Shown here in pieces: positions 45,668 through 46,585 of a stretch of 64,000 nt of DNA. Source of the stretch: an uncultured Planctomycetia bacterium (lineage in GTDB: Bacteria; Omnitrophota; Gorgyraeia; 2-02-FULL-51-18); the NCBI GenBank assembly GCA_964606485.1, contig CAZSGP010000001.1:353085-417084 (forward strand), written 5' to 3'. Each line of letters begins with the position of its first letter. The stretch's first letter is position 1. Made by a program: the position numbers and the translations under genes. The notes under the pieces are model-generated. The model saw only the letters and a program-made list of their open reading frames with translations. It was not told where the DNA came from and did no database searches.

Positions 45668-46585
45668 ATGAGACATTTTAATCCAAGACACGACCGGCAT
45701 GAGCGTCCGCGTCAGCGCGACGAGGCGGAGAGTCGGTTTCTAGCCGGTATCGCCGTCGACCCATCTCCGAGAATTCGCCTAGAAGACGGCTCTAAAGAAT
45801 TCACCACGCGCGCCATAGATCTCATTTGTCCCATCGGAATGGGGCAGAGGGGTTTGATTGTGGCACCTCCCGGTTCCGGTAAAACGACTTTCTTGAAACA
45901 CATTTGTCAGGCCGTATCGAAATCTCAGCCTGCGATAAAACTTTACTGCCTGCTCGTTGACGAGCGCCCCGAAGAGGTGACTGATTTTAAACGAAGTGTT
46001 CCCGCAACGCTTTATTGGTCCTCCTCCGATGAAAGTTATGAAAATCATATCCGCGTGGCAGACGAATTGATGCGCCAAGCGATTCGCGAGGCGGGCAATG
46101 GTGAAAACGTGATGGTGGTGATTGATTCGCTCACACGTCTCTCGCGCGTGCACAATGCCGAACGTGGCTCGAGTGGACGGACCCTTTCAGGCGGAGTAGA
46201 TGCGCGAGCGCTCGAAGTACCGCGACGAATTTTTGGCATGGCGCGCAAAATTGAAAATGCCGGCTCACTCACGATTCTTGCCACAATCTTAGTCGACACC
46301 GGAAGCCGCATGGACCAAGTCATCTTTGAAGAGTTTAAAGGCACCGGCAATATGGAAATTGTTCTAAGCCGCGAAATCTCCGGGCACCGCATTTACCCGG
46401 CAATTGATATTTCTAAAAGCATGACGCGACGTGAGGAATTATTGGCCACCGGTCCCGAACTCGGCAACATGCGCAAACTCCGCCGCGAACTGGTGAAGCT
46501 CGGCAGTGTCGAAGCCGCCAAAACGCTCGTGTCTCTCCTCGAAAAATTTCCCACAAACACCGAACTTCTCGCGGCTCAGCGTTAA
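45668..46585 (+). CDS. rho: Rho termination factor homolog consisting only of the C-terminal RecA-type ATPase domain (no N-terminal RNA-binding/OB domain)
   Basis: Walker A [24 protein letters not shown], Q-loop-like [26 protein letters not shown], and [16 protein letters not shown]. The ORF is closed 18 nt upstream of the ATG by an in-frame TAA, so no NTD can be encoded here. Confidence 0.8.
   Translation: [305 protein letters not shown]

Follow-up and report, generated by a model that had tools for sequence, protein, structure and literature searches.

A motor-only Rho paralog encoded behind lexA and dinB in an Omnitrophota genome

The stretch of DNA analysed here comprises 64,000 nucleotides of contig CAZSGP010000001.1 from an uncultured bacterium of the Omnitrophota (contig positions 353,085–417,084; termed the window, within which all window coordinates are given). 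The gene under study, at positions 45668–46585 of the forward strand, encodes a 305-amino-acid paralog of Rho, the transcription termination factor, that is devoid of the N-terminal domain (NTD) and consists, according to its open reading frame (ORF) and its profile and fold matches, of a basic tail, a connector and the RecA-type ATPase/translocase domain. This gene, termed short rho, lies directly behind lexA and dinB on the same strand. The lexA product (43771–44352) has 193 amino acids when read from the ATG at 43771 (mechanical ORF start 43750) and contains an S24 peptidase domain and a LexA DNA-binding domain, and dinB (44352–45656), the start of which overlaps the lexA stop, encodes a Y-family DNA polymerase IV (Pol IV) of 434 amino acids with IMS and IMS_C domains. 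The stop of dinB at 45654–45656 is followed by a spacer of 11 nt (45657–45667), in which no Shine–Dalgarno-like sequence was seen on inspection, and short rho is then read in a different frame from dinB. An in-frame TAA at 45647–45649 leaves 18 nt ahead of the rho ATG, which is itself backed by homology, as the Omnitrophota homologs begin with M-[RK]-[NH]-[FY] at the equivalent place.

Focusing on domain content, PF00006 was the sole Pfam domain of the 305-amino-acid protein, which gave no Pfam match to the Rho_N helix bundle (PF07498) or to the Rho_RNA_bind OB-fold (PF07497). The NCBIfam Rho model NF006886 matched with E = 1e-107 and 360.4 bits (cut-off 315), but over model positions 132–411 of 413 only, and the Rho chains of several PDB entries, including those from E. 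coli, M. tuberculosis and T. maritima, aligned over their C-terminal domains only. As shown in the AlphaFold2 model, which has a predicted local distance difference test score (pLDDT) of 87.4, residues 19–26 are helical and were taken as the connector, and the best Foldseek matches of this model were the C-terminal domains of E. coli Rho, with a query TM-score of 0.86. A hidden Markov model (HMM) built from 134 canonical Rho NTDs, which recovered canonical rho genes at E = 1e-37 to 1e-44 as positive controls, found no Rho NTD or OB-fold in the six-frame translation of the window. The original prediction, made from the sequence of the window, that this is a Rho homolog with the ATPase domain only, and that its frame is closed by the TAA 18 nt upstream, leaving the NTD unencoded here, therefore agrees with the Pfam, NCBIfam and PDB alignments and with the blank NTD search. 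Compared with canonical Rho (E. coli; PDB entries 1PV4, 3ICE and 5JJI; TIGR00767/NF006886), short Rho has the connector and the RecA-type C-terminal domain in full, whereas the helix bundle and the OB-fold primary site, which reads Rho utilization (rut) sequences, are absent and a basic tail of 24 residues is present instead; the score with TIGR00767, 341.9 bits, is below the cut-off of 509.45. The FliI/type III secretion and F1/V1 ATPases, which are also covered by PF00006, have the RecA-like ATPase fold and hexameric relatives in common with short Rho, but they reach at most 78 bits versus 360 for Rho and are without the Q-loop/R-loop RNA site of Rho.

The motifs of the motor were assigned by alignment with canonical Rho. 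The Walker A motif or P-loop APPGSGKT (residues 66–73, 45863–45886 of the forward strand, as for all of the motifs that follow) contains K72, corresponding to K184 of E. coli Rho. The DERPEE motif (residues 98–103, 45959–45976), which is invariant in the family and in canonical Rho, provides the catalytic glutamate (E99, corresponding to E211) and the arginine valve (R100, corresponding to R212), Walker B (46112–46129) contains D153, corresponding to D265, and the arginine finger is R254, corresponding to R366 (46427–46429). Together with T185, these E. coli positions have invariant equivalents throughout the short Rho family. The secondary RNA-binding site is also retained: the Q-loop lies at residues 166–178 (46163–46201), with R171 at the position of K283 and S174 at that of T286, and the R-loop TGSRMD (46298–46315) places R214 at the position of K326; R171, S174 and R214 are the majority residues of canonical Rho at these positions, and residues 168–173 of the Q-loop are at low pLDDT in the model. 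All of the motifs quoted in the original prediction are present, namely APPGSGKT, DERPEE, TGSRMD…EEFKGTGN (residues 211–228) and the stretch at residues 244–259, but the label 'Q-loop-like' given there to LVDTGSRMD was misplaced, since this stretch is the R-loop, which occupies residues 322–326 in E. coli Rho.

Superimposed on this conserved set are substitutions that are specific to the family. Residue 69, within the P-loop and equivalent to K181 of E. coli Rho, is glycine in 100% of the family and in 0 of 136 canonical Rho sequences, giving the PPGSGKT form of the motif, and A273V and Y274H are further family-specific exchanges. The present protein contains all of these signature residues (PPGSGKT, V273 and H274), as well as a basic tail followed by the connector motif [RK]F[L]xG. 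K181 contributes to the bicyclomycin/ATP pocket, and because of this placement the K181G exchange could possibly alter the inhibitor sensitivity of the family.

The N-terminal tail (residues 1–24, 45668–45739 of the forward strand), delimited by homolog alignment and by the confidence of the AlphaFold2 model, is rich in arginine and histidine and stands where the NTD would be; residues 1–18 are of low confidence in the model and are read as disordered. In 17 Omnitrophota-type sequences with a recognised start, the N-terminus follows the pattern M-[RK]-x-[FYTS], mostly M-R/K-N/H-F/Y, and the tail is rich in arginine, histidine and proline, 24–55 residues long and of median net charge +6, followed by an acidic DEAE-like patch and then by the connector motif. 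The members from Gammaproteobacteria begin with MTRKTLSLKVKRNK…, over 32–39 residues.

The extent of the family was assessed by a protein search over 5.8 billion proteins, which yielded thousands of relatives, the best 120 of which were inspected, and by a genome scan with one genome per GTDB species, in which the best 80 of at least 579 confirmed stretches were used as loci; with 80 metagenome contigs these make up 160 related loci. The best 120 protein matches had lengths of 283–357 amino acids and contained PF00006 only, and those with an organism name were called 'transcription termination factor Rho' from Candidatus Omnitrophota/Omnitrophica. In all 80 genome loci the ORF is closed by a stop shortly upstream, with a predicted product of about 296–409 amino acids, and the 80 metagenome contigs carry the same NTD-less architecture. 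The genome loci derive from Omnitrophota and from metagenome-assembled genomes (MAGs) that carry the label Planctomycetia, Elusimicrobia or Eisenbacteria. In addition, 53 gammaproteobacterial genomes contribute loci, among them Marinobacter, Halomonas/Vreelandella, Marinomonas, Paraglaciecola, Colwellia, Microbulbifer and Endozoicomonas; several of these are cultured and many are marine.

A neighbour-joining tree of 230 C-terminal domains placed all 81 short proteins in one clade, which contained no full-length member; bootstrap values, from a subsample of 82 taxa, were 94/100 for the whole clade and 100/100 for the gammaproteobacterial subgroup. Members of the clade have roughly 290–335 amino acids and are 64–82% identical to the query, and the Omnitrophota-type and gamma-type members are on average 67% identical to each other. 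The identity between the family and canonical Rho is 51% on average and 57% at most, whereas the sampled canonical Rho sequences are on average 60% identical to one another; no full-length Rho above about 55–57% identity to the query was found among 1.84 billion representatives. In one gammaproteobacterial locus (L026), the short copy is 4 kb away from a canonical rho, the NTD of which is 80% identical to that of E. coli, with 47% identity between the two C-terminal domains; in at least this lineage short rho is a paralog of canonical Rho. On the basis of the absence of a close full-length Rho, the single supported clade and the 47% identity within L026, the clade is best read as an old paralog rather than as a recently clipped resident rho.

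These data bear directly on the reading that the gene is an artefact or a decaying copy, the N-terminus of which was lost by assembly error, by frameshift or by recent truncation of a resident rho. The short length fits such a history, and nothing else does. The same architecture is found in at least 160 independent contigs, no sampled full-length Rho exceeds 57% identity, the start codon and the N-terminal tetrapeptide are conserved, and the DNA upstream is wholly taken by an intact dinB of 434 amino acids, the orthologs of which have 432–445. In the Logan assembly of run SRR12487046, a run possibly shared with the window record, the same six genes occur in identical order at 100% identity. 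GC content and GC content at third codon positions (GC3) of short rho are those of the adjoining genes, and the nonsynonymous divergence (dN) from relatives is 0.17–0.30, with synonymous divergence saturated and hence no ratio given; the selection is purifying, and the motifs are intact. We therefore regard the probability of an artefact or of decay as negligible, and for practical purposes both a pseudogene and an assembly artefact can be excluded; the earlier suggestion of a 'split or degenerating rho' does not hold, given the number of independent contigs, the retention of all catalytic and RNA-contact residues and the low dN. Judged from these comparisons, the gene is intact and belongs to a conserved family of motor-only Rho relatives that is widespread, extending across several phyla. 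A split Rho with an adjacent NTD gene was considered and rejected, the NTD HMM being blank in the window and in every short rho flank examined. A defence-system origin was also set aside, as PADLOC yielded weak P-loop matches only, as was a mobile-element origin as a general explanation, with no member in the phage collection, one contig in IMG/VR, where the gene is placed at the very end of the contig, and one phage-plasmid in the plasmid collection.

Shortened Rho proteins have been described before. Moreira et al. (2024; PMC11347177) distinguish functional Rho Types 1–4, all of which keep the RNA-binding domain. The 'Type 4' or 'Group B' short Rho proteins are likewise shortened, are often second copies and have a conserved ATPase domain; Type 4 Rho, however, is without the helix bundle only and keeps the RNA-binding OB domain, whereas the short Rho reported here is without both. 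To go by the citation in PMC11347177, D'Heygere et al. (2013) describe 'Group B' Rho as being without the N-terminal domain. In the scheme of PMC11347177 the present protein would rank among the single-domain 'Rho-like' sequences, which are recorded there in 421 species, in the supplementary material only. The curated NCBIfam model NF041509 ('paralog_Rho2, transcription termination factor Rho, short form', 360 amino acids) represents another short paralog, the C-terminal domains of which align end to end with the present protein (312.6 bits versus a cut-off of 628, model positions 73–358 of 360), but the model has roughly 72 residues ahead of the motor that are missing in short Rho.

Other lineages with the C-terminal domain only (P0121, P0123, P0131 and P0171) share the PF00006-only architecture at 301–328 amino acids and are 47–61% identical to the query, with P0121 and P0123 as the nearest outgroups, branching just outside the 81-member clade; none of the lineages tested reached the NF041509 cut-off. 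P0123 comes from a MAG labelled Candidatus Sericytochromatia, and P0131 occurs in genomes of 4.4–4.9 Mb. The Sericytochromatia are related to the Cyanobacteria, which are reported to be without a functional Rho. In the literature searched, no description of the motor-only clade, its cross-phylum distribution, its tails or its function was found, and NCBIfam has no model that is specific to it.

In this genome, short rho is likely to be the last gene of the lexA–dinB transcription unit. The likely operon promoter, TTGACA-18-TATAGT (43720–43749, forward strand), matches 11 of 12 consensus positions in the promoter scan, and a putative LexA operator of the GAAC-N4-GTTC type, CTAAACGATCGTTCAG (43727–43742, forward strand), lies between its −35 and −10 hexamers. 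The sequence CTGAACGnnCGTTCAG stands at the matching position in three related lexA promoters, with the pattern TTGACA-(A)CTGAACGnnCGTTCAG-TATAnT at about 5370–5400 in locus L185, 5400–5430 in L186 and 5385–5415 in L188, so that promoter and LexA box are common to four Omnitrophota lexA–dinB loci. Since the palindrome is kept at the promoter while the flanks have diverged, this phylogenetic footprint suggests that the Omnitrophota clade uses a GAAC-N4-GTTC-type SOS box and that the lexA–dinB pair is a conserved two-gene unit. No forward-strand promoter match was found by the scan from the lexA promoter to the rho ATG; on the basis of the 11-nt spacer, the absence of this internal match and the conserved LexA-box promoter, SOS-linked and damage-inducible expression of short rho is likely in this genome.

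The position behind a LexA-controlled Y-family polymerase resembles that of ImuA- and UmuD-type accessories of SOS cassettes, and in the original prediction short rho was accordingly put forward as a possible SOS accessory ATPase, repurposed from Rho. On this reading it would be a dedicated partner of Pol IV that, after DNA damage, makes way for translesion synthesis by removing RNA polymerase or R-loops or by working on DNA. In addition to the 11-nt distance, the lack of an intervening promoter match and the conserved LexA box, the gene for a Tag glycosylase nearby is in keeping with this proposal, as is the role of Rho in limiting R-loops and in helping to remove stalled elongation complexes that conflict with replication (PMC12360218), which would also make a damage-inducible rho beside Pol IV plausible in this lineage. 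However, the likeness to ImuA and UmuD is one of position, in this genome only; short Rho is not homologous to them, and its gene showed no repeated linkage to the polymerase gene across the sampled genomes. Within flanks of about 5–6 kb, none of the 160 loci encoded a LexA or DinB homolog near short rho. The nearest DinB relatives, 78–81% identical to that of the window, all sit in lexA–dinB pairs, but in the three closest cassettes the gene that follows encodes Tag (L185), a Ham1-like protein (L186) or an aminopeptidase-like protein (L188), and rho in none. Recurrence of the lexA–polymerase–rho synteny was thus observed neither from the rho side (0/160) nor from the dinB side (0/3), and the arrangement is confined to this genome among those sampled. 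Orthologs of the DEAD-box helicase, ABC-F, Tex and Tag genes of the window do occur in the L185, L186 and L188 loci, in differing orders, and the linkage consequently looks like a lineage-specific juxtaposition by local rearrangement.

The neighbours of short rho elsewhere are of a different kind. In other Omnitrophota the gene occurs in a housekeeping setting with partly conserved synteny, in which genes for adenosylhomocysteinase, an iron-containing alcohol dehydrogenase, pyruvate kinase and ABC-F precede rho, and in some of these genomes rho is directly followed by an ortholog of the ABC-F gene of the window or by a gene for an RlmI-like methyltransferase. Within 3 kb of short rho in 83 family loci, the recurrent neighbours are DEAD-box helicase (12), ABC-F (11), RlmI-like methyltransferase (five), cold-shock protein (Csp; four) and pseudouridine synthase (four), and the metagenome loci add similar cases of RNA-related neighbours; the gammaproteobacterial members are found in unrelated gene contexts. 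As the recurrent neighbours belong to RNA metabolism and synteny with lexA–dinB does not recur, a dedicated function as a cassette accessory is disfavoured and in our estimate quite improbable, and the SOS wiring, as far as the sampled loci indicate, is a trait of this lineage and not of the family as such.

Several observations accompany these neighbourhoods. Two DEAD-box RNA helicase genes of the window, at 38888–40201 and 49132–50490, lie on either side of the region. A convergent DEAD-box helicase gene is found 150–300 nt downstream of short rho in Halomonadaceae, Marinomonas and Gilvimarinus, and the association was seen in loci L028, L037, L040, L048, L051, L063, L069, L075 and L180. In one Omnitrophota subclade, a gene for a CspA-like protein of 66 amino acids is found on the same strand 135–245 nt upstream of short rho (L011, 3949–4146; L015, 5669–5866; L021, 5614–5811; L141, about 245 nt upstream); outside this subclade it was seen in L060 only, 1.2 kb upstream. 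The primary RNA-binding domain of Rho is related to the cold-shock fold, and since it is this domain that is lost, the CspA-like protein could supply RNA binding in trans in that subclade.

Taken together, we favour, with a probability of about 60%, a functional motor-only Rho paralog: a ring-shaped RNA translocase without the rut-reading primary site, with SOS wiring that is specific to this lineage. The short protein would assemble into a hexameric ring, as Rho does, and would move 5′ to 3′ at the expense of ATP along RNA that passes through the secondary site, the Q-loop and R-loop of which are retained. With the helix bundle and the OB-fold primary site absent, rut sites would not be readable, and RNA would be captured or targeted via the basic tail, via the motor itself or via a partner. 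The tasks of such a motor may include rut-independent removal of RNA polymerase or of RNA:DNA hybrids (R-loops), or RNA remodelling. In the present genome, rearrangement would have put the gene 11 nt behind the LexA-repressed lexA–dinB pair, where it is probably co-transcribed.

A number of points weigh against this interpretation. The tail of the window protein is the shortest (24 residues, net charge +2) and the least basic of its group, which weakens the idea that the tail captures RNA. In E. coli Rho, according to work known to us through its citation in PMC11347177, deletion of N-terminal residues abolishes RNA binding, and a motor-only Rho may therefore need a partner; in all-against-all clustering of the flanking ORFs, though, no family occurred in more than 14 of 81 loci, and no conserved partner gene was found. 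The neighbour pattern is guilt by association, and the synteny of related genomes is shared by descent. Finally, the tight linkage to lexA–dinB might reflect a real damage-related role in this lineage.

A different view of the same protein is that it is the sole housekeeping Rho of the Omnitrophota, which would have no canonical rho and would use a general termination factor in which a disordered basic tail substitutes for the NTD. The gene is common in Omnitrophota MAGs, which account for the organism-named hits and for the majority of the top genome loci; its degree of conservation is about that of the adjoining ABC-F gene, and its housekeeping neighbourhood with partly conserved synteny would suit such a role; NCBI, moreover, names these proteins Rho. 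Neither the 64-kb window nor any of the Omnitrophota flanks contained a canonical rho or an NTD gene, but these flanks amount to about 10–12 kb per genome only. Furthermore, the clade coexists with canonical Rho in Gammaproteobacteria (L026), and 30 genomes of the Planctomycetes–Verrucomicrobia–Chlamydiae (PVC) group are reported to carry two rho genes (PMC11347177). We consider a sole-Rho role unlikely on balance. If it were true, a whole phylum would terminate transcription or clear R-loops without rut recognition, with the factor additionally wired into the SOS regulon beside Pol IV in this lineage. Among the nearest NTD-bearing representatives, the context of P0138 looks non-Omnitrophota, with a type IX secretion system-type neighbour, and a literature search for Omnitrophota together with Rho or termination gave nothing relevant.

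Coexistence with a canonical rho, as in L026, also raises the question of whether short Rho acts on its full-length relative, tuning or poisoning termination through mixed hexamers or through competition for ligands of the C-terminal domain. For species that have two rho genes, the formation of mixed hexamers has been suggested (PMC11347177), and one member on a phage-plasmid and another at the end of a viral contig would fit a modulator. However, short Rho is only 47% identical to the C-terminal domain of the canonical Rho encoded by the same genome, the full set of catalytic and RNA-contact residues is conserved, which argues for an active enzyme over a decoy, and the phage and viral collections contain next to no members of the family; a modulator of this kind is very unlikely in our view.

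In models of Rho-dependent termination, the N-terminal primary binding site is central to the recruitment of RNA. A strongly conserved clade from several phyla that keeps the motor and the secondary-site residues while discarding the NTD suggests a second, rut-independent use of the Rho motor. The presence of the clade in cultured Marinobacter, Halomonas and Marinomonas offers a tractable system for studying Rho action without the primary site. For annotation, the clade goes in databases under the plain name 'transcription termination factor Rho'; canonical Rho counts should not include a 'Rho' with PF00006 only, nor should the SOS-cassette context seen here be generalised.

Two members of the family lie in settings of their own. 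A gamma-type short rho that is 70% identical to the query is carried on the 102-kb plasmid pB of Spartinivicinus ruber (NZ_CP048880.1; locus L082, 7917–8876), which also encodes capsid, terminase and holin proteins, with short rho flanked by the holin genes on one side and by a series of small ORFs on the other; another copy is that of L083 (8001–8852). On the chromosome of Marinobacter sp. QJJ-212 (L058), short rho at 5902–6879 is accompanied by a second partial match at 12492–12842, which starts 5.6 kb downstream, nearly reaches the end of the locus and may continue past it; an IS21-type element (IstB and a Mu-type transposase) is found 2–4 kb upstream, and a DUF6998 gene directly upstream.

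In the window itself, the gene after rho is tex, which is convergent with it, and the interval between the two contains a GC-rich hairpin (46618–46646, forward strand) without a T-tract, a weak terminator candidate with a nonsignificant z-score of −0.65. No Rfam family was matched over 40–51 kb of the window. The sequence GAACGGCCGTCC at 49100–49111, in the 52 nt that separate tex from the divergent DEAD-box helicase gene, is one mismatch from GAAC-N4-GTTC, and may mean nothing, as such near-matches are fewer across the window than expected by chance. Upstream of the lexA unit, an ORF of 336 amino acids (42656–43666) has no Pfam or PDB match, and its orthologs, with 61–63% identity, occur about 1.2 kb upstream of lexA–dinB in L185 and directly downstream of the pair in L188. 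With its presence next to lexA–dinB or no more than 1.2 kb away in three of four loci it was considered as a real third member of the cassette, and this was dropped on finding that it is a widespread protein labelled aminopeptidase or thermophilic metalloprotease by some sources; it is probably an ordinary enzyme outside the cassette, the labels of its relatives being aminopeptidase, leucyl aminopeptidase and thermophilic metalloprotease.

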